DNA of 60,808 nucleotides, the filler included, from Bipalium vagum (Eukaryota), in assembly GCA_037834085.1 (NCBI GenBank). It is 3 parts of 3 records of this genome, joined end to end, with 100 filler letters (N's around TTAATTAATTAA, not from the genome) between each part and the next. Parts side by side here need not be neighbours in the genome. Positions count along the whole stretch, not along the records: positions 1 to 23,694 come from JBBMKC010206043.1; 2 more parts are not named here. One strand, given 5' to 3'. A model generated the notes under the pieces. It was not told the DNA's origin and searched no databases. It saw only the letters and a list, made by a program, of their open reading frames with translations. The position numbers and the translations under genes were made by a program. Positions 2,120-34,601 of the stretch are shown here, one piece after another (the first letter of the stretch is position 1; every line of letters starts with the position of its first letter).

Positions 2120-5057
2120 ATGAAAGCATTGATATTAGTTGGTGGATTTGGAACTCGGCTCAGACCTTTAACGTTGACATTGCCAAAACCAATTGTCGAG
2201 TTTTGTAACAAGCCGATGTTGTTGCACCAAATCGAAGCTCTTGTTGAGGTTATAAAAAGATTTTCTTACTATGACATGATTGCTAACATTTTTTATCAAA
2301 TAGGCTGGTGTTTATCACATAATTCTAGCGGTCAGTAGGAGCGCGGACCGGAGTGATTTGTTGGAAAACGAATTAAAAATCCACGAGGAACGGGTAAGAT
2401 TCTGAAATAATTCATGTCATTAATGCAACAAACCATTATCAACTTAAGCTCCACATCAAAATCACCTTTTCCTACGAATACGAGCCCATGGGGACAGGTG
2501 GACCAATTGCTCTGGCTAAGGACTATCTGTCCAATGATCAGTCTCCGTTTTTCGTGCTAAACAGTGATGTAATCTGCAACTTTCCTTTCATAGAAATGAT
2601 CCGATTCCACAAGACCCACGGCAAAGAAGGAACGATAGTAGTAAGATTTGAACATTATTTTCCATTGGCTGTTGTCGATTATTATTGATTATTATCCTTT
2701 ATATTTTTCTGTATCCATCTTTCTAGGTAACCAAGGTGAGTGAACCTTCAAAATATGGTGTGGTCGTTTACAACCGTGACGGACTTGTCGACCGTTTCGT
2801 GGAGAAGCCTCAGGAATTCGTCAGTAACAAAATCAACGCCGGGCTTTATTTGTTTAACACGTCGATACTGAATCGAATTCCAGTAGGTCTTCTATGTTCC
2901 ATTGAGAGATGATCGTTTTATTTTTTGTCTTCTATCCTTTTCAATTTGTTCAGCTCAAGAATGTCTCGATCGAAAAGGAGACCTTTCCTAATATGGCCGA
3001 AAACAAAGAGCTTTTTTGCATCGAATTGGAAGGTATTATCTAATATTTCCCAATAATCAATTATGGATTTTTAGTTATACAAAAAATTGATTAACAATTA
3101 TTCATCAATGATTTTTTATATTATAATTAATATTATCGATTATTACTATAAATTATTATTGATTATTTAATTTATTGTATTTATTGAATATTATAATTTT
3201 TTCGATTCTAATAAATTATTTTTTATTGATTTAAAATAATCGACTATTATTGACTTTTATCGATAATTATAAAATATAATTTTTATTGATTTATTTATGA
3301 ATTACTTTTTAAAACTTTCATTCAATTTAAAGTGACATTGTTGAGTTTCCATTTCAAACTATGAGTGGGGGTTAAAAATATTTATTTTATATATTTTAAC
3401 AAATATATGAACTGTGCTTAGTAATTGTCTAATACACTTATTGACACACTTTCTCGTCAACCCTCTTCTCTCTGTCAGTGGTTCTGCTTGTGCATGTCTG
3501 TGAATATTTCAGAATTGTGATTTTATTTGGAAATCAATATCGCTTGAAAAATTATTATTAAAAATAATTTTTGTATTTTTCGGGAATTTATCATGGATTT
3601 ATAATTTTGTTATGTTATGTTGATTATAATTATTATTCATATAATAATTATTTATTATTGTGTCGGTACATGTCTTTATTTTTCAGGATGTTTTTTGTTT
3701 ATAATTAATGTGCATGGGATTGTTTACATCATGTTTACGATGAGATGACTTTTTAAAATCAAATCAATTTTCAATAATCACAATTCTGTTCGTTACACAC
3801 ACTAAAAATCAGTTTTCCAGATACACTTGGAGACAAAACAGGTGTTGAACAGCCAAAAATACTCATTTTTATCGACGTTTTAAACTCAAGAGTTTGTTAT
3901 TGATCTATTTTCATGGATCGATCGTTTTCCATCTTTCAATTTCTTTATCTCTATTTTCACTTTCATTCTCATTATTTTCTATATTTCTTTATATTTTCTC
4001 TATCTCTTTTTCCTATCTTTACCTTTCTCTTTCCTAATTTATTTCATTTATTATTCTTACTTTTTCACTTTGCCTTCTCTCCCTTTCTTAATTTCGTTCT
4101 ATCTTTGGTTTTCGTCATATATTTTAGTATAATAATTTTTCAAAGATTATATTTTTATTGATTCTAATTGAAGTCGTTTCAGTTATCGACCTGTTTTATT
4201 ATTGACTATTTATTTTAGCTAGTGATTGATTACATACTTTCCTTATATATATTATATTGATCCCCTTATTGATGAATTGATTATCACACTGGTTTCTTTC
4301 ATTTTTACCAATCTATTCTTCAAAGTTTTTATCGGTCAATTTTTTAACGATGTTATTGTTCGGTATTATTATTATCCGATTTCTTATTCCTATTTATCGA
4401 TTTGATTTATTAAACGGTATCATGTCTAGGATTCTGGATGGATATCGGTCAGCCAAAAGACTTTCTCTTTGGAATGTGTCTCTATTTGGACAATGTCAAA
4501 GAAAAAAACGGCTGCGCTCTTTTCCGAACCGGCTCGGGGTTTCTTAGCAACGTTCTCGTTGTAAGTAATTTACTTTATCCGCTTTCTTTCAATATTGGCC
4601 TTTCATTTCTTTTTCACTGCTCATTTTCTCTTCTCCTTTCAAGGATCCAACGGCAGTTATCGGACAGAACTGCGAAATTGGACCCAACGTTGTCATCGGA
4701 CCGAATGTCGTCATCAGGGACGGTGTGAGAATCAAACGGAGCACCATCATGGGCAATACCGTCATCCACGACCACTCTTGGATCGATTCGTCGATAATTG
4801 GATGGAGGTGCACTATAGGTCGTTGGGTGGGTTTAATAATATTCGATACTAATAGTAATAATAATCGATAATGATAGTCAATTAAAGTATTGATGAGTAT
4901 GCTTCGTTTAACTGTTTTCATTTAGACTCGAATCGAAAACGTAACGGTACTTGGAGAGGACGTCCACGTCGCCGATGAAATATACATAAATGGTGGTCGA
5001 GTTCTGCCGCACAAAAGCATTTCTGAATCCGTTACGGAGCCTCAAATCATCATGTGA
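2120..5057 (+). CDS. GMPPB: Mannose-1-phosphate guanylyltransferase beta (GDP-mannose pyrophosphorylase B), complete, 8 exons, 363 aa
   Basis: Exons 2120-2248, 2304-2393, 2449-2640, 2727-2882, 2954-3032, 4430-4560, 4644-4826, 4926-5057; all GT-AG and in frame. Motifs [46 protein letters not shown], hexapeptide repeats [13 protein letters not shown] and C-terminus [18 protein letters not shown]. Confidence 0.97.
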
Positions 5058-5859
5058 TGCTATTTTAAGATTTTTTTCTTACTCTCTGTTTTTCGTTGGA
5101 TTTTTATATATCTCCTTTTCTTTTTGGTCTTTCTTATGAAACGTTTAATTTTTTTGAGGTTCGTTAGATAATGCTCACAATGAATTTCAACCAGGCGGTA
5201 GATTAACAGTAAAAAGAGTGAATAGACGGTTGTCGTTGTGAATTCCGATAATAATAAAGTGATTATGGTTGTTTGAGATGAAGTGAATTATTACGAAAGG
5301 GACAGTTCAGGAAAGCGTGTTGAGCTATGGTTGGTGCGTGAATATTATCGAACAAATATAGTTTATGGGGAATATATCGTACTATATAGAGGACCAAAAG
5401 TATACACGTTACACTTTGCTATGAATGCTTACACAGAAACATTGAGCTAAATTCTCCGCTCAAAAATCAATGCTATTTAATGGAAAATATAATTTTATAA
5501 TTATATACAGGTGTTGCAATTTAAAATTACATTTTCACTTCCGTTATCAATAGAGGAAAATTAATTAAGTAATTGACGATTTATAGACTTAATTTTAAAA
5601 TCCCTTTTGGAGTACCCTTAAAATATTTATATTTTTTATTAAGATGTTCGTATTTAGCCTCGAGCTTATGATTTAATGTGACCTAGTTTATGTTACTAAT
5701 TTTTGTAGTTACGAATCAATAAACTTAAACTAACAATAATCTAAAACTAATCGATGCACCAGTTAAATAGACAAAATAATCGAAGTAAATTAACACTTAT
5801 GACAAACTCGCACAATTGCTGTTTCAAATATCAAGTTGGCATTAAATTAATAAGTGTTG

Positions 5860-6086
5860 AGATTTGGTGTTAAAACTTGGAAAGTGGCAGGGAGTCCAGC
5901 AGCCGATTAAGACTGAAACGTGATTGTGTGTTTTGCTACGGTGCGTTTCGTTTTGTGTGTGGCAATTAATTGAAGGAGGGATCATTTGATTGAATATTTT
6001 TCGGAAAATCAAGATTTTACCTGTTTGTGAGTAGGTGTGTTCAATATTTTCTGACTTGGTTGAAAATTTGCTCATCATTCATTGGT
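5860..6086. repeat. Dispersed repeat, copy 1 (homologous to 40915-41128)
   Basis: Shared blocks atttgattgaatattt..ggaaaatcaagatt, ctgtttgtgagtag, ttcaatatt.tctgactt, tcatcattcattggt. Confidence 0.85.
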
Positions 6087-6253
6087 AGTTTACTATTTAA
6101 GAAATATGTAAAAAATTGATGGAAATATTGAAAATTCAGTTCTTATAATATCTGTTAGGTTGAGGAATAACTACGTACCGTTTTTAAAAATCGTATTTAA
6201 AGTACTAAAAATTTACTCACGACTTTTATTTTATAACACATTTAACACATCAA

Positions 6254-6407
6254 GTCTATGACATTATTTCCGTCGTTCATAATCCCTTGGTCCCAACGGT
6301 CCACAAGTTTCTGAATTCCACGGCGGAAAAAGTCTTATCTCTTGAGCCAAACCATTTGGTAAGCCAATCTCGTAATTCTTGTTCGTCACCAAATGGTTTG
6401 CCACTTT
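6254..6407 (-). mobile_element. Mariner transposase C-terminal relic
   Basis: Minus-strand translation GKPFGDEQELRDWLTKWFGSRDK / FRRGIQKLVDRWDQGIMNDGNNVID (one frameshift), typical of mariner C-termini. Confidence 0.75.
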
Positions 6408-6984
6408 TATATAATCTTTACAAATTCAATATCAAAGTAATAATAAATTCACAAAAATTCAATGGTTAAGAGTGGGGTAAATAAACAGGCTCAACTTATT
6501 TCAATAACTAAAGATAAAAGAGAATTAAATTAAAGAAAATAAAATAAATGAACACAACAGAAAACAATGTACTGACGAGATATTGTAATATGGGTCCTTA
6601 GATCACCAGTTAGGCCCATTTGGTTTTCCTAGAAACGATCAAACTCAACAGGACCAATTTTTATCAAATCTTGATTTCATAATTGAATTTTTTTTTAATA
6701 CCTTAGCAGAGTGCTTGATCCAATTTATTCTCTTGACCGGGATGAGTATTCTTAATTTAATTCACTGTTAGACAGTTGCTTCTGACGTATAATCTTCAAC
6801 AAAAAATTCTTAGAATAGAATAGAATCCAAACTAATATTTTCGCCATTTTCTAGGAGGCAATATCTTTAAAAAATCATATCTATCATGAAGGACCACTTG
6901 CTTTCGCCACCCTTTTGACCAAATATGAAAATTTTGCGGCTGTCGGCACTGCTGAAATGTGGCGGAGAAAAAGATATCAAAAAA

Positions 6985-7870
6985 ATGGAGTTCTATCTAC
7001 CAAGAATATTTATTCAGTTCCTATTTTCGGACTATGACAAATTCATCTAAATTTTTATCCTTATTATTATTAATTACAAATTATATTGGTTGTCTAAAAG
7101 GAAGTTCTGCAGTAAACGAAACAAATGATAGTCTCACGGTGCAATATCAGGACTATAATGAGGATGTAACAAAACTTTCCCATCAAGATCCTTCAATTTG
7201 TTCCAAGTCATCAAGGACACGTGGTCTTCCGTTGTCATCGTGAACAAACAACATATTTCCTATCGATCAATTCTGACAGCATTTTATTGCAATTTCATGC
7301 TGTACCCTAGCTAATTGTTGATAGTAGAGAACAGAGTCAACTTTTTGAGTATTTCTTTGCAGATGATTCTTTTTTAATCCCACCTTGGCTTCAATTTTGC
7401 CTTTGCCGTGATTTTTGGAATCTCACCACTTTTTGTTCATGACTTTTTTCTAACATCGTTCTCGTATCTGATCTATTTTTCGTCACCCACAATAAAACTT
7501 TTCAAGAATGGTTCCATAGAGTTTTTTATCACCAATGTTTGGCATATTGAAATTTTGTCTATTAAAATTTTCGGTGTTAATTGATGCGGAATCCAAACAT
7601 CAAGTTTTTTAAAATGGTTTAAAACAGTTTGATGATGAATACCGAGGTCTTCTGTGATTTCACGGTTACCATATGACTGTCTTCCTCCACCGTCTGAAAG
7701 ATTTCATTGATTTTTTAACATGTTAGCCGGCCAGAACGAGATTCGTCTTTGACGTCGAAATTTCCAAATCAATGTTACCATTCACGGACTCTTCTATCAA
7801 ATACAGCATCTGAAGTAATTTTTTCGCAGACTGCGTTACATTTCTGCTTTTAATGAAAAAACATTTCAAA
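6985..7870 (-). mobile_element. Degenerate near-full-length mariner transposase
   Basis: RRVREW..FGNFDVKDESRSGR, IVGDEK*IRYENDVRKKS, HDDNGRP, VLLHPHYSPDIAP*DYHLFRLLQNFL, with stops and frameshifts. Boundaries approximate. Confidence 0.85.
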
Positions 7871-8530
7871 AGGTATTACATTTCTTTTTTATTTATGTCT
7901 ATTTCTAAACATAAACAAATTTTTATTAAATTAATAATAAAATGCCAAACTTTTAAAAGTAATTTGAAAGATCTGATTACTAAATTTATATAATTGAAAT
8001 ATTTAAACAAATAAAATATCAATATAAATATCTGTAGAAGTTTTTCCCCGCCTTTTCTCAAAATCAGCAGAAACTTTTTAGATAACCCAATATTATTAAT
8101 ATTGGAAATTTTTAATAATTACCATTCTCTTCTTTGAAAAAATGAAAAAACATAATTTCAAAAATTTTTATTATAAACGAAAACAACGACAAAAAACACA
8201 AATTTCCTCAAACCACATCAGAAAAATATCCGACAGAAAAATAGCACAATTACAATGATAAAATCAACACCCAACCCTTCACCCATTGAAATCCTCTCAC
8301 CAAATCAGGTAATAAAAAACAATAATAATAATAAATCGATGATGATAATAATACTAAATCAATAAATTATAATATAATCAATAATAAAATTAATTAATAA
8401 TAATAAAATAATAATCAATAATTAATAAAAGTAATCAATATAAATAAATCAATAATAATTTTGAAAATTTCAATAAAAATAACAATCATTTTCAAATATG
8501 TTTGTTTTGGCCTCGACTAAGATTTCCCGA

Positions 8531-9595
8531 TCAATAACTGCCCGAAATTTGACCGACTCCGCTGGAACCATAACCGCCCGAAGATTTCCAGTTGACGTGG
8601 GACACTTGGAAAACGCTCCTGGGATCCAGATTGGAGCGAAAGGCGGACGCAACGCGAATCTGTGAAATAGAAAACAGTTATTGATTTTTTCAACAGTCAC
8701 ATTAAAAAATCAAATTATAAATCCATTCCGGCATGCATTTGATCAATATAAAACAAACGTGGTTCATTTTTAGTTAGTTATTTTTTCTTTGTTATGGATT
8801 TATTATATTATTTTAAAAATATTATTGATTTTTTATTATTATTTCTGATTTAATATAATTTTATATTTATTATCATTATTAATTATTGTTATTATTCTTT
8901 ATCAAAATTATAATTCATAATTAATATTATTGTATAATTTTTATACAATTACCAATATCCTCAAACCTGCTACTGATAAATTCGTATTTATTATAAATTT
9001 TTTATAATTAATTTACTTTCGATGGATATTCATAATTATTAATATTTTAATTATCTTCATTTATTCTAATTTTTTATTTTCTTATTATTGTATCATGCAA
9101 TTTGATATTTTGTGCAAAAAAGCAGCCGAGTTCACTCAATTTCCATTCAAAAAATGTTTCGGGCGACATTCACTTCTTTCACTCATAAAACATTTTCATG
9201 CGTTTGAATTTTCAACTTTTTACCTTTGTTAAAATCAATATTTCACCAGTAAAACCATCTTTGGTTGGACATTTCATTTCTTTTTATTATCATTTATTAT
9301 TATCATTATTATTATCATCATTGATTAGGCCAATTATAGTTCTTATAAAAACAATATATAATATATTATTTTATGATTTTTATTATATAATTTTATTTCA
9401 TGTTATTATTGAGCTTGATAAAACGACTGCCTACTCTCTCATTGGTAATTTCGGACACTAAATACATAAATAATAAAATCGTAACAACATTAATTATGAA
9501 AACATTGTTTTCCTTTATTATTTTTATTAATTATTATTACTTTTTTGTTTTTATAAATATTGATAAATACTTATTTTGAAAATCGTATAATTACA

Positions 9596-9636
<41 letters not shown>

Positions 9637-12228
9637 TAATAATCACAATCACAATGGAAACAATAATTTTCTATTCTGAACAGTAACAAAAAGAACATTT
9701 AAAGAAAGGGACTGAGATCTACTTGAGCAAAAAATAAAATAAAATAACTGTCAAAATAAAGCTGACCCTAAGTTACGAGAAAAGAACCCTTTGATTCAGT
9801 TACCGAAGTTCGAATTTGTGTAGGCTGACTTAAGTTTTGATGATGACAAAGTAAAGTTGGAAGGGTACTAGTAATTGCAACAGTGAAGGGCTAACACAAT
9901 AAAAATCTCGCAAGACAGAAACACACTAAGGTTTTGTCCAATACGTCTCCAAATAATAATAATAGTAATAAATATTATTATTATTATTATTTTCATCACC
10001 GATCGGAAAGTGTCAATTATCAATTTCAGGAACCACAGACATCAACAGAAAGCCCAGGTAGACCACACCAATAATCAATTTTCATCGATGCTTTCGCAGC
10101 TGAGAACTGGTCCACTTCCAGTGAAACCGGAGGCCAATTGCGGTGAACTGCAACTGGACAGGTGGTTCTTCTCCTTCATCGTGCGACACTCGTATTTGAG
10201 ATTGGGCAATTTAAATCTTTGGATTTCCGGTTCGGTGATATTGATTCTCCGTTCATTGTTTTGTGTTGCAATACACGAGGACTGGCGACGCCGAGCTGCT
10301 GCCTGCAAAGGCTCGATTCCGTCGTCGATTTGAGCCAGGGTGAACCTTCGTACTCTTCCGTATACAATGTCGTTCCGGTTGTCCAAATCTGGTTGGAAAC
10401 TGTTTTTCTGCAATCGTTAAATCACACTGTGTATTTGTGCATCAGTAGCGTTGAAAGCACAGAGAAGAAATGGACATCACAAATCATGCGATTGTGATCG
10501 TTCTCAATTAAAGGTTGAAAGTGAAAAACGGCAGTGTTGTTGGAATTATAAAATCAACAATATCAATTTACAAATCATCAAAATCGATAAAATCAATAAA
10601 ACCTTAAAAATCTAAAAATAAATCGCTAAAATCGAAAAAATAAAGCTCAGAAAATTGATGAAACCCTAAAGAATCGATATAATTATAAATCAATGAAGTT
10701 GAAAGGTCGGCTGAAAATCCCACCTGTGTCTGCAGACGAGACAAGCCACGAATCCAAAGAATTTGAGCGGTACTCTTCAAATCGTCATCGTCGTCGTCAT
10801 TGTTTTCCAGAGCTGCATTGTTGGCGGCCTCTTCTTCTTCGTCGTCGGAATCACTTTTGTATTTTCCCAAGACTTTGGAATCGCTTAAAGAAGAAAGGGG
10901 TTTTTTCTTGGTCCACGGCATTCGCTTTGGCAAAACTGATGTCGGCACATAATTGATGATCTGAAATAAAATCCGTTAATTTTTTCGGTGTTGTCAGTGG
11001 AGTACATTGTTCAGTTCCGCTCAGATTACAAAGGCAAGAGAAGGGTTTTATCTGGAGAAAATTATCTCAGAAAAAAGAAAAATATCACAGATCAAAGACA
11101 ATAATTGAAAGAGCAAAGTTTCGAACACGATCCTATTTTGTCAGGGAGAGAAGGTTCAAAGTTTTTGTCAAAAAATTTAGAAGAAGAGGATAATTTTTCA
11201 AAAGAACCAAGAAAATATTTGAAAAAGAAATAATAAGATTAAAGATTTAGCAATTTTAAAAATAAAATATTAATTAATAATGTTAAATAATAATCATAAT
11301 AATGATTTATTATTATTATTAAATTCAAAATTAATTTTAAATAACATAAAATGGAAAATTATCATAAAATAATAAAAACATTTTTTCAATAAAGATTAAG
11401 TTTTAAATATTGATTTAGACAAAATTCCCCATATATTTGTTACATTTGCAAAGAAAAGTCTAAAACGTTGACCAAATCTGACAAAAATGTTAGAGAAATG
11501 GGCTTTGTTGGCTAAAGTGATGTCGAACTTTTAAAAGTACTCTTTTACCTTTTATTTATTTATTGATAAAAAATTGCTACTTTTCTCTGCTGAGTGATTT
11601 TATTAATGAAAATATTTCATTTTAAATAAAAATATTTCAAAATCGATAAGCCAATGTTTATTACAATTTATTGATTATTACTATTATTTTTATAATAATA
11701 ATAATAATTATTATTATCATTAAATCATAAGAAACAATAAGAATCAATGAAAAAATGATGACAACCTGCCCCCATAAAAGCACTCCAATTCCAAATAGCA
11801 AGCACCAGAACCAATGGTCCAATTCCAAAGCCGCAGTGTGCAAAGCATAACCGCCGAATTGGACGATGAAGACCTAAAATGAATTTTAGAAAAGATTTAC
11901 CAAAAACGAAAAGACGAAATACAGAATAAAAAGTCAGAAATATTAATCGATGGAAATCAATCGAAATCGATACCTGGCCGAAAAACGTAGACACCCAAAT
12001 GAGAATAAAAAGCAAATTGCGATGGATCCCATCGAAAACGTTTCGTTGGCCGTGTATTTTTCGTGAATTGAACTCGTTGAACAGCGTCATCATGACAAAG
12101 GTATTGAAGATTACCGTGAAGTGCTGGGTGGGCTTATTGATTCCTCTGTCCGTTAGACCTCTTCCGTTTTCAACATCCAACAAAATGTTACCTAAATGTC
12201 GAAGACGAGACTCCATTACTTTCAGCAA

Positions 12229-12307
<79 letters not shown>

Positions 12308-14710
12308 TAAATCTTGTTTTATCAAGTTTTAATTATTCTTGTTTTCTTTTTATTATGCATAATTATTTACTTTATATTTTAATTTATTATTACTAATATT
12401 TAATATTTTCATTATCACAGTTTTATTATTATCATTTTAAAACTATTATGAATTAATAATAATATTTATTAAAAACATCTATTACGCAATATCCATAAGT
12501 AACAATGTGCAAATTTAAATAATAATTAGAAAAGGCCCCACTTACCGTGCCACAGTAAATAAAACGTGACGGCCAATTGGTAAATCGACTGACCCCAAAT
12601 GTTCTTGATCATTCGTCGGCTGATTATCGGTTTTGTTCGGCCGTATGGCGCTCTTTCCAACAGTTCCTCAGTCGGCCTTTCTGTTGCCAAGGCCAAAGAT
12701 GCTAAAGTGTCCATAATCAAGTTGACCCATAACATTTGGACCGCTTTCAAAGGACTGTCCTGGAACAGAGAAAAATAGTTTGAAGATTGGACGTACATTT
12801 TCCATTAATTTATCTCAGTTTAGTGTCTCATCAATAGACTTCATTGAGTTTAACGATAAAAGTAATTAAAAACTGCAGTAGAATTTCGATTTTTCGCCAA
12901 TGACCCTTGGCGAAACAAAATCTGGACAAAGTTCGAATATCACTCTTAAACTTGGTAACTAAGGCAGAACACCGAACAAAAGACTTAAGTTTTATTCCAA
13001 CCAGCAGATGTAATACGACACTGTTTCATTGTTTGGATAACAGATTCTCGATTTCCTTTTTTGTCAAAAATTCTTTTTATATCTTTCTTAGCTGTATCAG
13101 GGTTTTTATCAAGAAAATCGATAACGCATCCAATTTGTGGAAACACATCTTGAAAACTCATTTCACCGATGACAGTGTTGCTGGAATATCTCTAATGGAT
13201 AGCTCAAAATCATCTCCTGACGTTTGACATCTCATTCCCATAACTCTACTGTCTCTTCATCCTCCATCCATGGTCCACTTATCATAAATTTAAATGCATT
13301 CTCATCGAAATTTGAATCCCTTTCAATATCGCTCATTCAAAGTCACTCTCTCTGTGTCATTTAAGTTAATCTTCCTTCTTTAAACCATTCTCGGTCCACT
13401 TTATCTTTACCTTCTACATTAATTGTTCCTGTTTGCTTCCATCAGTTTCTTTTCTAAGTGTTCTTCCAATTTCCTGCCAGTACAAGTCCATCCATTCAAC
13501 ACATTCCTTCCCATTCACTTTGCTGTCATTTCCTGTTGCATAATTACTGAAAAGATATCGACATGGTCTTTTGTAACCTTCTTTAAGGCTGCAATGATGC
13601 CAGCATCCAATGGTTGTAGACTCGATGTAAAATGTGGTGAGATGACAGAAATTTAACATTTCACAAAGATTTTCTTTCTTTGTCCATTATCCTTAAATAA
13701 AATTATTTTCCTATTTTTCCGTACCTTTTACGAATCTAAGTTTTCAAACCAACTTCGATATCATGCTCTTTTGAAAATTCTACCATGGTTATAGAAAGTT
13801 TATCACTCCGGGCTGCATCCGAGAGTCACTTTTCTTTCGATACTTTTGTGTTGGAAAATTTTGATTTTATGCAATGCATTTTGTGCGGTCTCAATTGATA
13901 ATAAAGAACGCCACCGTTCATATTATAAATAAATTGATGTTTATATACTTCGCAAATATCAAAAAGTTTCGATCTTTCATTTTCAATCATCACTATCACT
14001 TATCGCTACCTCTCCATGGAAAAGCTTATGCTTATCGATTACCTTTTCATAACATTTTATATTCACTGAGCTTAATATTGACTGAGATTGTTAGACCTAA
14101 CTTTGGACAGTAAGACCTGCTTTTGTTTTTAGAATAACAATATTTATTATAACATTTCGATTTCTTGCCAAAACCATCTCTAATATTTATTTTTTATTTT
14201 AATTGTTTACTTATTATTTATTGTTGATTTTATAATTTTTTCTAATTAAAAATTTACAATTATTTTTTATTTTATTTATGGATTTTGTTTATTTTATTAT
14301 TTTGCTAATTATTTTCAATTTTTATGATTCCAGGGATTTAATTTTTATTATTTATTGATTATTTTAATATTTATATTATTTATTAATGATAAATTATTGA
14401 TATATATATTTAATTAAAATTAGTAAATTTATTTTTTATTTGGTTCTTAATTTTTATTAATTATTGATCTTTTATGTTTTTTTAAGTCCCTTTATTTTTG
14501 ATTATTTATCAACTCGGATATGTTAAAAAAAACTATAAAATAGTTAAATGTTAATAAATTTCAGTTCTTGGTATTTTTTGCCTTTTTGCAAAGATGTTTT
14601 AATAATAAAAAAGAATAATGAATAAAAATAAAATTATTATTGATAAAGTCAAATAATTAATAGTGATAAAATATAAACATGATAAAATATTTATAAATAT
14701 ATAATATATA

Positions 14711-17700: not shown

Positions 17701-20700
17701 TAATCTCGTTTCAATGGACCATTAACAAATCCCAGTAAAGCACATTCGGTCTTGTTGCCGATTTGTGATGGCAATTCGTTGGCATGGCGACTGGGCTAAG
17801 ATGGTTAATGAAAATTCATGGACGCATGAGTGACAATAGAGAAAAAATAACAACAGACAAATACCATCAGTCGTGACGTGTAGCTGCTGTTGACGGAAAT
17901 ATTTTTCGTCAACATGTCGGCCAGATTGAACGTCAATTGCTCAAACGAAGGCAGGTGTTGGCGATAATGTGTAGCGTTGAAATATGCTTGCACCACCGTC
18001 ATCCGATTGGTTGTCAAAGTGCCCGTCTTATCGGAGCAAATAACGGTTGCGTTGCCCATAGTTTCACAAGCGTCGAGATGTCGAACCAAATTATTATCCT
18101 GCGAAATCGATCAATTTTGTAATGGATTAATTCAATAAATAATACAAAATACAAATAATAATTATTAAATAACAATGGATTTGATTGATTAAGTGTAAAA
18201 AAATTCCAATAAGAAAATTAATCTACCTTCATCATCTTTTTTACAGAATATGCCAAGGAAATGGTCACGGCCAGCGGTAATCCTTCGGGAACCGCTACTA
18301 CAAGCACAGTGACACCGATAATCAGAAAGTTTATCATTGTCTTCAAATGATCCATTTTCCACGATTGTCCTTCCAGATAATAGGTTGTGACGCAAAACTT
18401 GATGATCAATATTGTTACGGTCAAAGAAGCGACAATTGTTCCTGCAATGAGAAACGATTTTGTCAATTCTGTCCAGCTCTGTGTTGTGTGATCAAAGAAC
18501 GGAAAAGAACATTTTTCAGTGATTGAAGAATGGAGAGGGAAATATTTCGTACAAAGAAAAGAAAAAAATAGTTTAAAATTAAAAAATAAAAATATAATAT
18601 ACTTTAAGAAATGTCTTAAAGAAAGATATGTGAATGAAAAAAAGAAGAAATAAAGAAAATTAAAACGTTAAGAGAAATATCGATTAAAAAGAGACAAAAT
18701 ATGAAAATCTTGTTAATTTTATTTTAATTTTTTTAATATTTTAATTGATATTTTATTTTTATTTTAAAATATTTTTTATCTTTTAATCAATTCATCAATA
18801 AAAACTTTTAATATTATTTTATTTCTTTCTTTTTATTAATATTTAATTTTATTAATTTACTTTTACCAATATTTTAAAGGTTTATGGTGTTTATAAGCTC
18901 TTAGCACAAATATATATTTTTATATTTATCATTAATACGTTAAGTTTAGTTAATTATAATTTTTAAAATTATTTTATTATTTTTTTATTGAGCTTATGAG
19001 GTGTTGATAGAATTCAAATAATATTTCATTTATCATTTTTGAAATTATTTTTTTATTAATATTATTATTATATACAATTTAAATATGAAATTTTAAAAAT
19101 TACTTTTTAAAATAATTTAATTTGTATTGTATTTTAATTTTCGCCTCTTGGCCGATTTTTAAAAACTTTTTTATTATCTAATAAATTAATTTTAATTAAA
19201 AAATATATTTTTACTTAATTATTTTTTAATTACTCTTTTCCTTTGTCTTTAGTTATTTCAGTTCATTTATTTAATATTATTAAAAGTCAATTTTTTAAAG
19301 ATTTTATCTATTTTTTAAAGTTTAACAGTAAATATTTCAATTGAACAAACCCTAAAACCTTTACTGCACTCTTTGATTCTAACCAATAGAAAGTTGACTT
19401 TATTTCCCAATTAGTTTCTCTTAAAAACCAGACACATTGAACGAAATTGTAAACCGATTTCAAAAGCTTGATTTTTATTAATGTCCACCTGATGCCCTCC
19501 ACGCAAGTTGTCAAAATCAATTATTAAGAAACTTGTGTCGCTCAGTAAAATTGACAAAGTTTGATTTGTTTATTTCAAAAGAAAAAAGAATTTCGAAAGG
19601 AAAAAAGAGGTTTGAAAGAAAGAGCGAAAGAACGAAAGAAATTTTAACATTATCGAGCCAAGATTGACATTTAGTGATTTTTGATAATGTGAAACGAAAA
19701 TGTCATGCTACAAATCTGACGGAAAAGAATGACATTTTATTTACTGCGATAAAATTAGTATTAATAATGGCAATAAAATTGTTCACAAACACTAGGAGAA
19801 CGACGATAATCAGCGAAGAATGTCAAGAATCCAACGATTTCAGTTCACTGACCCCCAGGTGTCATCACATCGTAGGATTAGGGCGCGCGTACTTGTTTAA
19901 ACTAATAATAATAATTTACAAATCAATCTTTCAATCATTTGTCGTTTGGAAACCAAAAATTCTAACGGAAGATTGTGAAAAAGAATTGTGCACTAAATAA
20001 AACGGAAGAATCTCATCTTTTTTTTATAAAATTAACCAAATTTTCTTTAAAAACCAATTTTTCGCCCAATTTTTTCACAAAAAATTAATCAGTTATTATT
20101 TTATTTTCTTTTTATTAATCTTATTTGTGAGATAAATTAAAAATTAGTCGGGGGATTCATTTTCAACTAACATTATTGATTTTTTTATTATTATTTATTT
20201 TTCTTATTTTTCTTATTATTATTGGAATCCACAGTGAAATCCACAGTAAAACTGGTAAAAAAAACCAGTCTGATCAAATTCAAAATCAAAATCCAAAGAT
20301 TCCAAATGAACCTCAGGAGTTGATGGAGAGTGACGACAGCTCTCCGAAACTTGTTATCGACATCGGAAACATTTGATTTAATATTTGAAATTTGATTTGA
20401 ATTTGAATTTACATTTTACATTGATGTGCATGAAAAGACTTCTTAACGCATACTATCTTTATTTTTATATCTCTGAAGAAAGAATGTGATTTTGTATTTT
20501 ATATTGTTAAAATAATATTTAAATAATTAATAAAATTATAAATTATAAATCATTTTTAAAATAAATTAAAAGTTGATTAAAAGTGGAGTTAGATGTTAAT
20601 TAAAATATTAACTCACGTGAATAATCATTATTATTATTATATAAATTAAACAATTTACTATAAATAAATGTCGTGGAAGTAGGGTTACTAAATATAGTAA

Positions 20701-23241
20701 GTTCTATAGTATAAGAACTTACTTAAAATAAAACCGCCCACACATAAATTTATATTTAGTAAGTTTGAATAGAGCCAATGAGAATATATAAGCTCCTGGT
20801 TTTCACATTCGAAACGCCCTTAATCAATCTGAGAATACGCATATAGCTATTCAAGTTAAAAGATATTTAAGACGCCGGTAATAATAATATTTTTAATAAT
20901 TCCAAAGTTGTTTAATCGATGGAGTTAAACTTATATAATTAATTAATTAACATTTGTTTAGTGATAGAAGGAAATTCTTCCCATCACTAACTTTTTAATA
21001 TTTTCTTTATTCTTTTTTATTGTTCTCTCGCTAATTCGATTCTGCTTCGCTCTAGAGACAGGATATGCATTTTTGTTAACAGGACTTCTCTGACTATCGT
21101 AAAGTCAAGATGATATTTCCATTAATTAAATAATTGTGTGTAATTTTGAATATTGTTTGATTGAATAGATTTCTAACCTTGTATTTGTGATAGCAAATAT
21201 ACCTTATTTTATTAATAGCTTTGTTTATTCGTGAGTTTTCTATTATTTACACTTCCTTCGAGGGAGTTGGTGAGTCCAGTTGTAAGCGACCCTTGTAACA
21301 GTTTAGCTTGCGACCTAGACCGTAACATTATTAATTATTATTATAATATTAATTAAAAATCTTAAACTAAAAAATTGAGTAAAAGTTAAAGGTATATTAA
21401 ACGAATTTCTAAAATGTCAAATTAAAGTAAATTTTTAGAATAAAATCATAGAGACCAATAATTAAAAAAATCTGAAAAATCAGAAATTCATACATGTAAT
21501 TCGACAATAATGTCATACAAGTAAAAGTTTTTTAAAAAATTTTTTATGAAGATATCGCAATTACTAAAAATTATTATTATTTATTAATATTAATACTATT
21601 TTTTTTATTTATCCAAATCTCACCGATTTGCCCAATTGTACTTGCCAACTTGTTCAATTTCACTTGTAGAACGGAACCCTTCTTTTTTGTGAAACGTTTC
21701 TTCTTTTCCGACTTTCCCATATCGTTTAACTCTTCAGATTTGTTTCCGTCACCACTGGCCAAATTGTTCAGATTTTGATTTGAACTGTGTCCCTGGGCTT
21801 GGTCCTTCTTTCCGTCAGTTAATTTCAGCAATTCAACTTCTGCAAAATAACATATTTTTGTCACGGGAAATATATTCGATTTTGATTTTGTTTTTTCACA
21901 TTACTTTCTTTATCACCACCTTGAATGGATTTGAATTTCAAAGTTGTATCAACATTTTTTTCCGATCCGATTTTCACGGAATCTCGACTGGACTTTTTAG
22001 TGTCTCCGGTATCTTTTTTATCTTGATCCGTTGCTCCGAGTAAAGAAAATATGATACCGGCTTGTGAGTTTAGACCCACAGCAGTGACCAGGATTTTAGC
22101 CGAACCTTCCATCACATGAGTGCCTTAATCAACATAAAAATCGGAAATCGATCGCTTTTGACATTTTAATATTTTTGATAAACACGTTGAACAAAAACAA
22201 TCAATGGGAAAATGTCTAACAGTCAGAAATGCATTAATTCTATAAATCTTAATCAAACACCGAAGATTTTATTGAGATTTTAACGATTTAGAAAACTTTT
22301 AGACGTCAGACTGTCATATAAGCAATAATTGATCTTCATTTCACAATTTCAAACACAATTGATTTTTTCTCTGCATAATGTATAACAATGACTTAACCAT
22401 CACTTGTTTCAAAAATCAATAGAAATATTCCAACCTCAATTCTTCTTTTGGAAAAAAAATCAAAAAAAAGAATTGATAAAATATTAAAATTATGAAAACA
22501 GAAAATTCAATTTTAAAAAATATGTCGAATGTTGAGAGAAATTTCAAAATTATTGGCATATTTTTCTTTTATATTACTCGTTGATTTATAGAGAAGATAT
22601 ACAATATTTTGATATTTTTGATTTTCTCAATTTCCTTTTAGGAAACATTTAATGGCTTAATTATCAATTTCAGTTTATGACTATTTTCAACAAATTATTA
22701 TTGATTTTTTTAATTAATTTTATTACTGTCATTATTATTATTATAAAATTGCAAAATGCACCTGATAGCATCATCGGGTCGGTATCAACACCTTTTTTCA
22801 CATGGTCAGGCTCTCCTGTCAGAGAACTTTCATCTATTTTGACATCGTTACTTTGGATAATAACGCCGTCAGCCGGCATCAAGTCCCCTACAGAGAAAGT
22901 GAAAAATAATGAGAGATGGACAGAGAAAGAGTGAGAAATAGAGACAGGTCACGGAAAATGTGTAGCGAAAATAATTAATGGAAAATTGTTACCATATTTC
23001 ACTTGACAGATATCTCCAACAACAATGTCACCGACAATTATTTCTTTAACAACTCCTCCACGGATAACAGAAATTTTGTGATTTCCCTCAATTTGGTCTT
23101 GTAAGCCACGAAACTGACGCTCCTTTTGCCAATCATTGAATGCCGTTACCAGAACGACGACTATTACCGCAACGAGAATGGCAACGCCTTCGATCCAACT
23201 GGCATCACCTTCAGTACTATCGCCGTGACTTGAACCACTGA
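8531..23241 (-). CDS. ATP2B: Plasma membrane calcium-transporting ATPase (P2B/PMCA), 5'-truncated at contig end; isoform using the distal last exon
   Basis: Exons (-): 23241-22993, 22887-22762, 22123-21905, 21839-21624, 18441-18227, 18098-17865, 17795-17554, 16648-16506, 16152-15812, 15154-14792, 12759-12546, 12191-11974, 11873-11766, 10960-10724, 8659-8531. Motifs [35 protein letters not shown] (phospho-Asp near 18030), [42 protein letters not shown], and CaM-binding [14 protein letters not shown]|IRVASAFR. The N-terminus and TM1 lie beyond the spacer. Confidence 0.96.
10075..10407 (-). CDS. Putative alternative terminal exon of the PMCA gene (a-type C-terminus, ~110 aa)
   Basis: GC-rich open frame inside the last PMCA intron, preceded by acceptor gattgcag| (10408-10410) in phase 0 with ...LQTQ|. 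Encodes KNSFQPDLD...[12 protein letters not shown]...SCESIDEN*. Other nearby AGs exist, so the exact acceptor is uncertain. Confidence 0.6.
   Translation of the reverse strand, partial: KNSFQPDLDNRNDIVYGRVRRFTLAQIDDGIEPLQAAARRRQSSCIATQNNERRINITEPEIQRFKLPNLKYECRTMKEKNHLSSCSSPQLASGFTGSGPVLSCESIDEN
12235..12307. repeat. (ATT)n microsatellite
   Basis: About 24 perfect units in a PMCA intron. Confidence 0.95.
13200..14110 (-). mobile_element. Degenerate pogo/Tigger (CENP-B/DDE_1) transposase in a PMCA intron
   Basis: Fragments [39 protein letters not shown] and [22 protein letters not shown] (pogo PP.TS.LQPLD.GII motif). Boundaries approximate. Confidence 0.75.
14714..14778. repeat. (AAT)n microsatellite
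   Basis: About 20 units just inside a PMCA intron donor. Similar tracts lie at ~9597-9640 and ~34558-34598. Confidence 0.95.
17002..17144. other. Ordinary scaffold gap (143 N) in a PMCA intron
   Basis: N run without the linker; PMCA exons on either side join in frame (..ILTK|CSFV..). Confidence 0.95.
20669..21327. mobile_element. Candidate solo LTR in a PMCA intron
   Basis: ~660-bp block of higher complexity bounded by TGTCGTGG..CCGTAACA, with an internal TATA-like gaatatatataag. No clean target-site duplication. Confidence 0.3.
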
Positions 23242-23694: not shown

Positions 23695-23794
23695 NNNNNN
23701 NNNNNNNNNNNNNNNNNNNNNNNNNNNNNNNNNNNNNNTTAATTAATTAANNNNNNNNNNNNNNNNNNNNNNNNNNNNNNNNNNNNNNNNNNNN
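23695..23794. other. Artificial contig-joining spacer
   Basis: 44 N + TTAATTAATTAA (23739-23750; palindrome with stops in all six frames) + 44 N, exactly 100 bp. Confidence 0.97.
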
Positions 23795-24709
23795 CAGTCG
23801 ATTCTTAATATAAACATATTTAACGCAACCTCCGATCGTTACACTCTCTAAATCCTTCTGATATCTAAAAGCTATTTTGTGTTGAGGTTTAGTAAAGTGA
23901 ATAGAGGTAAACAAAACCACTCAAAACCCCAACAGATGTGATGAGACAAACCTTTTTGATGTTTCGTTTTCTTTTTAGATTTTTTCTTCGTTGTATTTTT
24001 ACGAAAACATGTCTGATAGTTCCCTTGATTTTTTTCTGAGTTTATTACTTTTTCTTTAAAAATGTAATTCTTCTTTTATTTTTATTTTGTCCTCTTTCAC
24101 ATACACTTGCAATGATCAAACGTATTTCTAAATATAAACCAATTAAATTCATAACCCAAACTTTGTTATATAAATATGCATTAAAAGCTTATGGCGTGAA
24201 ATAAATTATAAATGATTATAAATACATTTTAGTATCTGAATGTTAATAAAATCATTGGTATATTATTCATTTGCTTTTTTCCATTTAATATTTATTTTTA
24301 CATTAAACGAAACTAAAGCCAAAAAATATTTATATTTGGCATAATTAACAAATAAAATAATAAATTAAAAATTGTTTAAAAACCTTATGTTTTACATTTA
24401 AAATTCATTTTTATGAATACTTGATTAAAGTGTTTTTGCTGGTATATTAACAAATCCAATCAATGTTTAAAATAATTCTAAATCATCTTTGAAATTGGTA
24501 AATTAAATTAATGAAATCAACTATTATATTCTATTAAAATCTAAAAATATTTTAAAGTTTTAGTACATTATTGACAATTTAACATTTTTTTAAAAATAAC
24601 TTAAACATTTAATTATAAAAATATTTTTATTTGAATAAATTAAAATATCAACTTAAATTGGCGCATATTAAAAAACTTTATTTTTAAGAATTTCTGTTTA
24701 TAATTAATT

Positions 24710-27700
24710 ATGAATTCATCTACCTATGGAAAGTCTCCTAAGATCAAACGCAATAAAACGGAATTAGACATTGAAAAGTGTCGAGCAGAAGGCAAATGGT
24801 TCAAATCTCGTGACTTAGCATCACAATTTCAAAACGAAAAACGATCATCAACATTAGGATCCCTATATTCAATTGTAATGGCCGAATTCAAGTTAGAAAT
24901 AGGCTACAACGACAAAGACATCATACCACTTGAAGAAGCTTTAGAAATCAAACGATATCTTGACGATGCCATGAATTCCATTGATGACGGATATAAATTG
25001 GAAGCGAAAATTTTATCGGCCAAATTGAAATATACTCAGAAAAAATACGAAGACGCCGTCAATTGTTTGGAAGCATTGAACTTGAAGACGATCAGAATCG
25101 AGCAAGGCAGTTCCAGATTGACGAAACTAATCGCCGAAGGATTCGCAATCATCGGCCTGTCACTAGAGGAAATGACCGGCACAGACAAGAATCCTCCAAA
25201 GGACAATTACGACAAGATAATCGAGCATTTGGAAATGGCAGGCGACTTATGCATCTACCACTTGCAGGAGCTTGACAAATCGATCGGAACCAGCTCAGCC
25301 AATATTAACGGAACCGTCTCCACAACCACCAGTAGCAGTGATGACGTGGACTACCGAGGTTTGGTATCAAAACTCATAAACAAAGCCATCCAGCGATCAC
25401 CGATTATTTCCATAACGACAAACAATTTACAAAAAGCCGTCAGTCGCTACCGACAACTATTGCGGTACTGTGAAACGGACAGTACGAAATCCCTACGTCA
25501 AACTCTGAGTCGGCAATTGGCGGAAGTGTTGCTCCGTTGTTTGTGTATCAGCAATTACCAGAAATACGAGCTGGAGACCGAGCGGAATGCCAGCCAATCG
25601 ACGATGATTCCGAGCACAGCCGCCATGTGGAAGCAGCCAATGAAATACCCTAGCGATAGGTTTTGCCCTTCGGATCACAACCAGGAAGTAATTCTTCTGT
25701 TGCTGATCAGCGAGTTCCTGGCAAATCAGGAGGCCGTGTTGAACCGGTCCCATGAGCTCAAGGAGGCTCGCACATCCACTTTGCGCAGCAGTCAGGCTGT
25801 CTACGATTTACTGGCCATCGTCCTGACGCGCCGTCACTGTTTCCCTTATTTGTCTCAGCTGCAGCAGCACGCACTCAAGTTCTCATACAAAGAGTTTCAC
25901 AGCTGGTTTCAGCTGGCGCTATCTTTGATGAGTGGCGGTCAATATTATCGGTCGTATCTCGTTCTGAAAGAGTGCCAGCGAATCGATGAGAATCGACCAA
26001 TCGTTTTCGTGCTTGGAGCCGTTCTTTGTTTGGAACGATTGCAAAATATCGAGGATGGTATCCAGATGGCCCAGCGCGCCGAGGAGCTCTACTTGGCGGC
26101 CAACGATTCGATAATGCTGTCTCGAGCACGATTATTGATCGGCCGCGGTTACTCCCAATCGGCGCTGCGTACTCGGGTAATTGAAGATCGTCGCGCTCTC
26201 CAACAAAAGGCTATGCATCAATATGAGCTGGCGGCTCGCGACGACCCGCTGGACTTTCAGAGTAGGTTCCAATTGGCTGTCGAGCAGGCTTGCGCGCGAC
26301 AAATCAAAGCGGCCCTGGAATCTTGTCTGGCAGCGATCAAATTGGCCGGAAACCATTGTGCGTCGTTGCATCTGTTGGCGCTGCTTTACAGCTCGTTGGC
26401 CCGATTGCAGGATGCCTGTCGAGTTGTGGACGGAGCCATTATGGAACACCCAACTGACGTGTCGTTGCACAAGACTCGGTCGAGGTTGCAATTGGCCTTG
26501 CACGGGCCCGTTGCGGCATTGAAAGCATACCGGGGTGTCTTGGAGGCTACAAAGGATCAGGAAAATGAACCAAGTGCTCCGTCCACGGGTATCATGAACG
26601 GGTCGATTGCAGCTAGTAAGCTGGAAACGTCTTCATCGGTAATGGGTGGTATGTCGTGTCAGTTGGATGAGAATAAGCAAAATCAAATGGAAGCACTGTT
26701 AGGGTTGACTGAGCTCTATTTGGATTGCAATATGATCAAAGAAGGTATAGCGTGGTTGGATACGGTGTCTGGAATGGGAGTCAGTCATTATCAGATTCTC
26801 TATTTAAAGGCTAGGGTGCTTGAAGAGCAGGGTCACTTAAAGGAAGCAAGAAATATGTACGAGAACGTTTTAGCTATAAATGGAAGTCATCTGAAAGCTC
26901 AGCAGCGATTGGTAAGATATTGATTTTCTTTAAAAAATAACCGTCAATCAAGGGAATTAAATGATTGCGGAATCCTTTTTAATTAATCGCCCCAACTAAC
27001 TATATATTTAAAATTCACAATAAATAAGAAGTCACTTAAAAAACAAACAACATTATTGATTATCAAGGTGTGAAAACAAGTAACTCAAAAATTAAAATTT
27101 TATCTACTACTAGTTAGTTAGATTTTGTTAGATAAAAATAAAGAACAAAAACTATTAATATTCCGGAAAAATACTATTTGAGGTATGCAGTAATCATTTT
27201 GATGGTTTCCTCATGAATTTAATTTATCTTTTTAACTTTCACACCTATATTTTTCATCAGAACTATTTTAAAATTTGAACTATTCTAGCACATTAAATGT
27301 AAATAAATGGTTAAACCATTATGTACTTTATTATACTGAAATGTTTTAATATTTAAATTTCGTTATTGTGTTAATTTTCTCTGATTTCTGCCTTTTGTTT
27401 TCAATATATATTTTTTTACAGTAACCTGATCAAAAAATATATAATTAATAATTTTAAAATTAATTTTACATAAATAATTTATTTATTCATTATTGCAATT
27501 AAGAAGTTTAAATTCATTTAGTAATTTTTCCTATTCCCGTAATAATTTCAATGTATTTTAACTTTTTGTTTATATTTAAACAATATATTAAAATATTAAC
27601 TAGTGCATTCTTTAAAATTTCGCGCATCAGACATTTAAAAAGATTTAGTTTATCCGTAATTGAAAATTATTTTTACATAATGGATAAAGATATTTTGAAA

Positions 27701-28176
27701 ATTAAAAATCCAATGATTCGTTTTCATAATGAAACATAAAATTCGAAAATTTTTGAGAGCTCTCTTTTTAGGGAAAACTACTTCAGAAATTAGGCCTTCA
27801 TCAGTTTTCAGAAAAAGTTCTAAGGGATGCTCTTTCCCTTGATCCAAATAGCAGTTTAACATGGCAACTTTTGGGCGACTTGTTGACAGAAATGTGTTCT
27901 CTTTCAAATTCCTTGATTAAATATGACGCATCGTTGGCGGTTGATGGCGAAAACGAAGACATGAAACATTTATTTACATCCAGAATTGACAGCTTCGACA
28001 ATTCGGATTCAGAAGATTACGAGAATGCTTTTTCCAAGTTATCACTCAACGCACAAAGCCACAGGGAAATGGTCGCCTATGCTACAAAATGTCTGACGGT
28101 AGCAGCCGATCTTGAGCTGACAGAGCCTATTGAATCATTTTATGTTTTGCCCCGATCGATAAAACAGTTCTGGTGA
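24710..28176 (+). CDS. TTC7: Tetratricopeptide repeat protein 7 (PI4KA complex scaffold), complete, 2 exons, ~868 aa
   Basis: Exon 1 24710-26911 (..KAQQRL|gtaag) and exon 2 27772-28176 (ttttag|GKLLQKLGLHQFSEKVLRDAL..). TTC7-like motifs: ELDIEKCRAEGKW, LSRQLAEVLLR, FCPSDHNQEVILLLLISE, VYDLLAIVLTRR, FHSWFQLALSL, LHLLALLYSS, and C-terminal ATKCLTVAADLE..P..F.VLPR. Confidence 0.92.
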
Positions 28177-31282: not shown

Positions 31283-34200
31283 ATGGTATTTGAATCTATA
31301 GTTGTTGATTTGATAAATAAATATCTTGGCGATTATATTGTAAAACTAGACAAATCTCAATTGAAGTTAGGTCTCTTGGGAGGTAATCAGTTTTTTCTTT
31401 GTACATTCATAATATTGGTTTTTTAAGGTAACGTAAATCTAGAAAATCTTGATATTAAAGAAAATGCATTGGATAATTTCGACTTACCAGTTAAAGTTCT
31501 CCAAGGCCATATAAGTAAAACTTGTTTTTTGTCATTTAAAGAATAAATAAAATTGTAAAAATTTGGTTTCATATTTTCTTTCCATTGTCAACATAAACTA
31601 TTTCAAAAGGCACATTTTGTTTTCAAATTCAGAATTCCGATAAGCTTGCTTTTTAGTATTTTCTCTTGTTTTACGTCTTTTATTTCAATATTATATTGGG
31701 TGGATGAAAAGCTTTTCCGTATTTAGAATCCTTGAAATTAAATAGAAAGAGTCGAATAAAAGTATTTATTTAGCTATAATGATGCATCTTTATATTTATA
31801 TTCTTTTGCCATTTTTCAATTCATTATTCCATCACTGAAAACTTCGTCAATTTTTTGGTGGAAAATTAAAAAATCTCTTACATTATTGCATAAAACTAAA
31901 CTTTACACAAATGAAAGTTTTTCGGTAATTTAAATGAATGATAACCTTGTTAATGCCAGATCCTGACTTTGTGGTGGATGCAATATTACTTTCCATGGAA
32001 ATGATCATGATCTACTTTTGAACATTATTGACAATTTTATTTGATGTCTTATAAAATATTAAGAAATTTTCACATCTAATATTTTATTTTAGAAAAAATT
32101 GTTATTTTTTCACCAAATCTTTTATAAAAATACATTTTAATAAATTATCATAAATAATGTAAATTATCAAACGGTACCATCTCGTTTCATAAATTCACAT
32201 CTCTGAAACTTTACAATTTTACTTAATATGAACCAATATGTACCAATCTCAAGAATAACCTTACTCACTTCGAACTATTGATGTATATCCGTGAACTGCT
32301 TGTTTATGTATCTTTGTTTTAACTAAAAATGGCCTATTGTTCGAATTTTAACCTTTAACCTTTATCGGTGATATCGGACTCTTCACCTGAACATTTCCAA
32401 AACGCACAGTTTAATTATATCTCTTTAACAAAGGATAGCAGAATAAATATTTATTGGAACAAAATTGAATTTCGTGAAATTTGATCTTCTTTTTAAAACC
32501 TTCATTTTTTCAAAATATTTTATTTTCTTACAGAAATTCATTCAAGATCCATTGAATAAATCCACAAAAGCTAGTTGTTAAGAAAACCATTTAAATGTTC
32601 GATTTATTTTATTGAATCAAATCAATAATAAAATCATTAAAATTTATCTAAATTAATTTCCATGGCATTTTAAAACTAAATAAAAATATGTGGGAAGGCT
32701 AAAAAGTACTTAGATTCAACCCAAAATAATTAAGTCGCCTCAACAAAATTTTTTTAATAATACGTATATATCTATAGGTCTCATTTCTCGATATAACTTC
32801 CATAGACACACTGTTCACCAACCGACCATACCATTGAAACCTGTTTAAAGAAATTCTGATCTTTCATGATAAATTTTGTTACTTTATTTTTCATTTCATC
32901 CTTTAAAAACAAATTTATGTCATTGAAAATGTTTCTTCAAACGATTGAACAACCAAAAATCACTGGGTACACAATCTGGACTGTATGGATGATCCAAGTG
33001 CACAATTACAGTTTTTGTTTATGTGTCTTATGTTTTCTTGGATTTGTGAATGTGAGGATTATCATGGAGCCAAAAAAGCTCATAGCGGCGTTGGGTTTTA
33101 AGTATGAGGTAATCCGAATTTAGGATTTCAGTAAAATCAAGCCTTAAGATGCCGTTTCTGTCTTGAAAGACGTTCAATATGGCACATTTACGTTGCGAAA
33201 TTCCGAGCCGCAAGACCTTGAATTGTTTCTCATTTTCGAAAACCCATTCCTTTGACTCTTAGAGAAAAGAATGTAGACATTCAACGGCGTACCATCTCTG
33301 GTGTTTATATTGGATAAAAAATTTGATTCGACTGCCCCCACAGAAGATGAAGTTTTCTTTCACAGGCCATTTTTGGTCTAGCCATTATTTCGGCTGTTAA
33401 AAATCTCGTCACGAATTGCTCCATAAGTTTTGAATTCCCATTTGCTATAGAAGTAGCTAGAAGGTTCTTTGGCGTACATTTACCTTCTCATAAAGCTGCG
33501 TTTGAGTAATATTTAGTAAATTGTCACTATCTTTCAATTTTAGTAATTTCTTCACTAATTTCGACTCGTCTTGTACTTTTGATTGCATCGGACTCCTGTT
33601 CTACTAGTTCAATAATTTCGGATCCAGTTATGTTGAATTTTATTTAAGATCTTCGATAATTCTGGTAAGTACTTTTTAGCTTTACCACTTAAATAATATT
33701 ACAATATTATGAAGAATATTTTTAACCAATGTATCCTTTCTCTTTCTCTTATTCTCTTAATATTACTGGAATAATGTTTTCAGGCAAACTCACTTTGAAA
33801 ATCCCATGGAAAAATATCTATTCAGAGCCGGTCATTGCGGAACTGGACGGTCTGTATGTGTTGGTATTGCCAAATTCCGGTAGATTTTATGGTTGAGCAA
33901 TTGATTGGTTTTTTGACATGATTTTTTTTAGAAATCAAGTACGACGCAGTAAAGGAACAGAACTACAAAATTGAGACCAAAAAGAAGGAGCTGGAGTTAA
34001 TAGAAACCAATAAGTTGAAAAGAAATGAGACGAGTAAGTATAAATCGAGAAAGGAATTGAGAAACAGATGAATATTGATAATATTATTAATTTTATAATT
34101 ATCATTACAATATTATCAGAAAAGGATGCTGTTGTCAAGGACTCATTTGCGGAGAAATTAACGGCCCAAATTGTAAAAAATTTACAGATCAATATCAGCA

Positions 34201-34557
34201 ATATTCACATTCGTTATGAAGATACGTCAACGAGCCCTTCAAACCCGTTTTCTGTGGGACTGACATTAGCTAATTTATCTTTCCAGGTAACATTTTACGA
34301 GAAACGAGTTTTTTAATCGATAATTTATTGTAAATTTTTGATTATCATTTTATTTCTTATTTGAAAATGGTAGTGACCTTAATGTACTAATTTTTTATTG
34401 ATTAAAATTATTATTGATTCTTATTTTTTAGTCATTAGTTATTGTTTTTTCATAATTATTGTTGAGTTTATTAATATAATTTTATAATAATAATAATAAT
34501 TATTATTATCTACCATTATTAATATTTATAAATTAATAAAATAAATGATATATTTGA

Positions 34558-34601
<44 letters not shown>

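Follow-up and report, generated by a model that had tools for sequence, protein, structure and literature searches.

A candidate pair of alternative site C exons, one encoding a conserved flatworm tail, in a PMCA gene of Bipalium vagum

The 3′ end of a PMCA (P2B Ca2+-ATPase) gene of Bipalium vagum carries a donor, directly after the residues LQTQ, that likely splices to either of two downstream exons, one of which would complete the calmodulin helix while the other would attach a conserved flatworm tail. The gene was analyzed within a 60,808-nt stretch of DNA from genome assembly GCA_037834085.1, here called the window, and all coordinates count along that stretch. Judged from sequence and from comparison with relatives, both exons are very probably used in this animal.

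Alternative splicing at site C is a textbook property of mammalian PMCAs, and the window splits the calmodulin domain at the same QTQ junction that separates the a and b variants of PMCA1-4 (ATP2B1-4). Site C splicing is already known, as are the PMCA exon duplication dated to Bilateria and the flatworm isoforms present in automatic annotations. What appears to be new is a flatworm tail without a Pfam family, in which the distal calmodulin anchors are gone and two basic, kinase-like motifs, RRFT and RRQS, are retained. The literature searched does not describe site C tails of flatworms, although subscription papers and unseen supplements may do so.

Tail-swapping at site C would extend to flatworms, with one of the alternatives being a separate conserved module rather than a near-copy of the calmodulin half-helix. 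If kinase control replaces calmodulin control, flukes and tapeworms would possess a calcium-export isoform that is regulated unlike the pumps of their hosts, a host-parasite difference that is directly testable in Schistosoma or Echinococcus with peptide assays and with RNA data already in the public domain. Should the tail play no part in regulation, the arrangement only adds an ordinary case to a splicing pattern already known.

The pump gene and its site C junction

The body of the gene consists of 14 exons on the minus strand (23241 to 10724), separated by 13 GT-AG introns and forming 1041 open codons. The exon translations contain the DKTGTLT phosphorylation motif, PEGL and GDGTND, while PF12424, the C-terminal calmodulin-binding domain, matches above its curated cut-off (E = 2.6e-5). 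Both the sequence matches and a quick tree group the pump with animal PMCAs. On the basis of these motifs, the PF12424 match and the grouping, we class the gene as a PMCA, and calmodulin-stimulated Ca2+ transport is the predicted activity.

The best matches of the window pump are tapeworm and fluke PMCAs, with a top identity to any relative of 68%. The quick tree (25 rows, including two long branches, with no SERCA or SPCA rows and with named rows that include no free-living flatworm) places the pump inside the flatworm clade with a support of 100, and outside the orthologue clade of flukes, tapeworms and one Cichlidogyrus sequence with a support of 99. By this position, the gene belongs to a flatworm and either comes from a lineage beyond that orthologue clade or is a paralogue beyond it. 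The first approximately 120 residues of the relatives' PMCAs have no match within the window. N gaps (two short) lie at 23695-23794, between the first PMCA exon found and a head-to-head TTC7 gene, so either the missing 5′ exons are inside a gap or the scaffold is joined at this place. The longest PMCA intron (18442-21623, 3182 nt) follows the site A region and contains several GC-richer patches.

The last constitutive exon (10960-10724, minus strand, 237 nt) is preceded by AG and encodes an acidic linker and the N-terminal half of the calmodulin-binding site (W1-Q11, aligned to PF12424 positions 1-15). It ends ...[14 protein letters not shown], then GT. The phase-0 donor at 10724, after LQTQ, has a score of 9.8, the top of the 14 donors. 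The proximal exon (10407-10075, minus strand) follows a 316-nt intron (10408-10723, minus strand) with a weak acceptor; it is preceded by AG, opens in phase 0 and spans 333 nt, encoding a non-b tail of 110 aa and a stop. The distal exon (8659-8531, minus strand) is likewise preceded by AG and in phase 0, with 129 nt encoding a b-type tail of 42 aa and a stop. The initial annotation had described this layout of an exon ending in LQTQ|gt and two phase-0, stop-ended frames, and its coordinates, phases and lengths were reproduced exactly.

Its assignment of the junction to site C is also supported. According to the passages used from PMC12693652, the PMCA calmodulin motif comprises positions 1-18 (W1-F18) and is split at QTQ; the window junction shows patterns 1 and 2 of those passages and is followed by at least two coding exons with different tails. 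Together, LQTQ and the distal exon restore V14 and F18 and yield W1, L5, L8, V14 and F18, an intact calmodulin helix. The GC contents of the two site C exons are 0.48 and 0.535, compared to 0.40-0.49 in the 14 constitutive exons and 0.15-0.34 in the introns. DNA contigs from run X1, which is possibly the source sample and hence not independent, match 9662-11668 and 8017-9277 without differences, introns included and with no splice joints; none of these contigs spans both site C exons.

We scanned the 149 open AG acceptors from 10723 to 4900 with a position-specific matrix built from 65 b-type tails. The acceptor at 8659 scored 19.5 bits and the next best only -0.7, which singles out 8659 as the one b-type acceptor of the set. 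The distal tail ends in SGSY. Compared to the mammalian b variant, the distal form has the intact W1-F18 helix but lacks a C-terminal PDZ ligand. The initial annotation had pointed to the missing ETSL/V ligand and to an unusually short b-like tail, and both features turn out to be unremarkable: an E[ST]x[VIL] ending occurs in none of 22 flatworm b-type tails (versus 15 of 56 others), and lengths of at most 42 aa are seen in 5 of the 76 distinct b-type tails compared.

The resemblance of the distal exon to its relatives stops after about 14-18 residues. A phase-0 donor-like site through which it could be prolonged lies within it (8600-8608, minus strand, last exonic base 8606, score 6.3), and neither the matrix nor tblastn with 136 tails found a continuation of the distal exon, or a third exon, in 4900-10723. 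Another b-type exon, which is long (220-290 aa) and has the motif LK[AV]V[RH]AF, occurs in flukes and tapeworms (P0154, P0164, P0039, P0030 and P0172), and the same two methods did not find it in the window. In arthropod entries and one further entry (P0063, P0041, P0068 and P0099), QTQ and the b tail are separated by a short VIGGE...DQA cassette.

A conserved tail in the proximal exon

We built a profile HMM from the tails with which 14 fluke and tapeworm PMCAs continue after LQTQ and searched 2636 six-frame segments of the window. The proximal frame matched with an E-value of 2.6e-12, compared to 0.32 for the next best segment. An in-frame stop at 10419-10417, just before the exon, means that only the AG before 10407 brings the conserved motif into frame. 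This acceptor has a score of -0.7 and ranks 37th of 85 AGs; scores of 0.0 or below also occur at 4 of the 14 constitutive acceptors.

Alignment to relatives delimits a conserved core, LDxRxD..[10 protein letters not shown]..G..PL..ARRQS (10276-10386, minus strand), that is 46-50% identical over 50 aa to six fluke and tapeworm tails. By kinase consensus, the core contains two predicted basic, kinase-like motifs, RRFT (10339-10350, minus strand) and RRQS (10279-10290, minus strand). RRQS is kept in all 23 distinct cores compared across relatives, while the corresponding count for RRxT is circular, as the tails had been selected by that motif. On this homology, the proximal exon is real coding sequence and a conserved flatworm module, a point that the initial annotation had missed.

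Searching 1.84 billion representatives with a profile returned four matches, three of which add the monogenean Protopolystoma, a contig protein that clusters with Fasciolopsis and also carries the proximal tail, and a 119-aa protein (from contigs of about 1.1 kb) whose similarity to the window exon runs along its length, with an E-value of 3e-12. The fourth match, the ankyrin-repeat protein P0184, was dropped as chance. A word-based search for the tail beyond flatworms gave 17 matches among 7987 scored candidates, of which the 16 that were named are all flukes or tapeworms, and a second such search gave 15 among 7994, again all flukes or tapeworms; relatives were crowded out of these tail searches, so absence beyond flatworms is weak evidence.

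A different origin would be that 10075-10407 is part of a separate gene or a transposon. The annotations of Taenia solium (P0179) and Protopolystoma (P0181) do list the exon as a protein of its own, and remnants of transposons lie nearby. However, those stand-alone entries begin at the exon boundary or shortly before it, the proximal exon has no match in Pfam, and its homologues are joined directly to LQTQ in the full-length PMCAs of many flukes and tapeworms. The joined homologues exclude this origin for any practical purpose, and the separate gene models in at least two genomes can be flagged as annotation errors. In T. solium, the PMCA model itself (P0012) runs from LQTQ into a tail of unrelated sequence instead.

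Automatically annotated fluke and tapeworm isoforms in NCBI/UniProt show a corresponding arrangement, in which LQTQ is followed by b-type exons and by an orthologue of the non-b exon. The Opisthorchis felineus gene CRM22_007480 has three proteins (TGZ62340-2) that share 1230 identical residues up to LQTQ and then diverge into one non-b and two b-type tails. Among 14 pairs compared, eight non-b/b pairs from six flatworm species have 801-1247 identical residues up to the junction; the remaining pairs comprise one non-b tail against a cassette form, one cross-species pair sharing 569 residues and four pairs sharing 20-39. These isoforms are mostly automatic gene models, from annotations that also hold short junk tails after LQTQ. 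Four Logan contigs of 4.5-4.9 kb encode pumps of 1286-1334 aa, one with a non-b tail and three with b tails, and because whole pumps are encoded within such lengths, the contigs are likely spliced transcripts.

The coexistence of both tail classes in six species bears on whether only one site C exon is used in B. vagum and the other is a relic. The weak proximal acceptor and the short reach of the distal exon's resemblance would fit a relic, but both frames are open and GC-rich, the class motifs are kept, and the proximal core has retained its identity to distant flatworms. We consider a relic quite improbable, and use of both exons remains the preferred reading.

In flukes and tapeworms, b-type tails fall into two or more classes and an internal donor is apparent, whereas the window has one b-type exon and lacks that donor, and its pump branches outside their orthologue clade. 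Five proteins (P0149, P0153, P0169, P0171 and P0192), which include tapeworm and Opisthorchis database isoforms, exit the non-b tail once 70-76 residues have been read and continue in a b-type exon. In the matching terminal forms shown, the residue after this exit is Val, for which a codon starting with GT is expected, an observation made at the protein level only. By analogy, part of the window's proximal exon could also be inserted in frame into the calmodulin helix before the b tail resumes, similar to the mammalian c/d-type inserts. At the aligned exit site, however, the window reads ES|IDEN with the codon ATC, so that the relatives' donor is absent, and the phase-0 GTs inside the proximal exon have scores of only 1.5, 2.0 and 2.6. 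The relatives' forms are themselves possibly gene-finder chimeras. An additional in-frame form in the window is improbable.

The same five proteins lend some weight to another arrangement, in which the proximal exon would not end the transcript but act as a cassette that carries a stop. It would be spliced on from 10069 or 10000 to 8659, with the distal exon serving as 3′ UTR, much as in mammalian a forms; the proteins would be unchanged, and a single poly(A) site would be used instead of the two that the initial annotation expected. A donor-like site (10063-10071, minus strand) has its last exonic base at 10069, 6 nt after the proximal stop, with a score of 5.3, and that at 10000 scores 5.9, both inside the constitutive range of 1.1-9.8. 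The first AATAAA past the proximal stop is at 9528, with none within 540 nt. With only 6 nt between it and the junction, the stop would escape nonsense-mediated decay. On the other side, the donor matrix was derived from only 14 donors and comparable scores are common in window sequence. We regard the cassette as a serious minority reading; the choice between two tails, which it leaves intact, is the reading carried forward here.

Predicted control by calmodulin and kinases

According to the proposed mechanism, the donor at 10724 would choose between two acceptors, the near one weak and the far one stronger. The distal choice would produce a classical autoinhibited pump that calmodulin releases, using the anchors W1, L5, L8, V14 and F18. 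The proximal choice would retain only the W1-Q11 half of the calmodulin site, followed by the conserved tail. Because only this N-terminal half is kept, autoinhibition and calmodulin dependence would be weaker in the proximal form, similar to what a review infers about the a forms of mammals, and the passages used from PMC8835232 state that only the b form keeps the calmodulin site intact. Weaker calmodulin control of the proximal form is thus a probable outcome of the predicted sequence.

The initial annotation had contrasted an intact pump with a truncated, re-tailed one. An intact W1-F18 helix in the distal form and a new tail in the proximal form both hold up, while the word truncated is accurate for the calmodulin helix only, since the re-tailed protein is 68 aa longer. 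Unlike its mammalian counterpart, the window's alternative exon has 333 nt, its own conserved core and no clear b-type first half-helix. The anchor positions of the window's proximal form are occupied by S14, P17 and D18, compared to R14 in 10 of 11 and L18 in all 11 neodermatan non-b variants. As aligned, the neodermatan tails may keep Leu as a substitute anchor at position 18, where the window exon is one residue longer and has Asp.

RRFT and RRQS fit the PKA consensus, and they could act as PKA/PKG-type phosphorylation sites that tune the proximal form. PKA and PKC are listed among PMCA regulators in the passages used from PMC13464777. Kinase control through the tail is a tentative prediction that we place somewhat short of an even prospect. 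AlphaFold models of a non-b relative (P0037, 31 sequences, mean pLDDT 32) and a b-type relative (P0130, 62 sequences, one helix at 984-1013 across the junction with pLDDT of about 51-65) were too poor for comparison, and neither was used.

Origin of the tail and neighboring genes

The passages used from PMC9741552 assign ATP2B1-4 and the fly PMCA to a duplicated-exon event of bilaterian age and also name mca-3. They do not name the exon, and we infer that it is the one at site C. In this tandem-duplicated exon substitution, which the PMCA genes of vertebrates, arthropods and nematodes share, the alternatives are homologous, whereas the window's proximal exon could be no more than a copy that has eroded heavily. 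The term 'platyhelminth' is absent from the main text of PMC9741552. The portions used from PMC12092002 show mca-3a and mca-3b, and those from PMC13423992 and PMC5641333 contain no information on flatworms.

Mollusc and arthropod matches show several IRVV/LRVV-type tails after the same junction. Profile-profile comparison of the proximal exon with b-type exons using hhalign gave no significant homology (E = 0.12-0.18). The window exon starts with NSFQPDLD, near the NAFQMDLD of a mollusc b-type exon, and in a post hoc comparison with nine mollusc FQxDL tails its mean z was 3.25, with p < 0.05 for 8 of the 9; the neodermatan tails had a mean z of -0.21 to the same mollusc tails. Two further tails were picked by eye and provide no more than hints. 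The lophotrochozoan-type tail P0055 has z of 3.1-4.2 to neodermatan tails and -0.2 to the window, and the tail of a Schistocephalus paralogue (P0065) has z of 4.0 to the window (7 of 2000 shuffles) and 1.2-2.5 to the orthologues. Descent of the proximal exon from an eroded tandem duplicate is conceivable from these similarities, though we lean against it.

A more specific and rather unlikely version is that an ancestral duplicated exon for the calmodulin half-helix became a phosphorylation module, with its calmodulin anchors lost and two PKA/PKG-type sites fixed before the fluke/tapeworm/monogenean split and perhaps before the flatworm PMCA duplication. The pump would then be switched by cyclic-nucleotide kinases instead of calmodulin, throughout parasitic flatworms and with no vertebrate-host counterpart.

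Broken transposase-like remnants occur at 7100-7703, 6200-6470 and 13414-13686 (all minus strand); we take those downstream of the PMCA gene to be mariner-like and the one inside a PMCA intron to be pogo-like, and the two frames tested had no match in Pfam. Tail to tail with the PMCA gene lies a nucleotidyl-transferase gene (2120-4871, plus strand, PF00483), presumably resembling mannose-1-phosphate guanyltransferase. The TTC7-like gene (24704-26923 and 27772-28176, plus strand; PF19440, E = 2.8e-62) has a single open frame of 739 codons, while the other genes of the surrounding region have many short exons. The window also contains N-terminal exons of VPS13 (34044-36170, plus strand, PF12624) and exons of a Cys-loop ligand-gated channel (50395-56810, minus strand), which match PF02931 and, weakly, PF02932.
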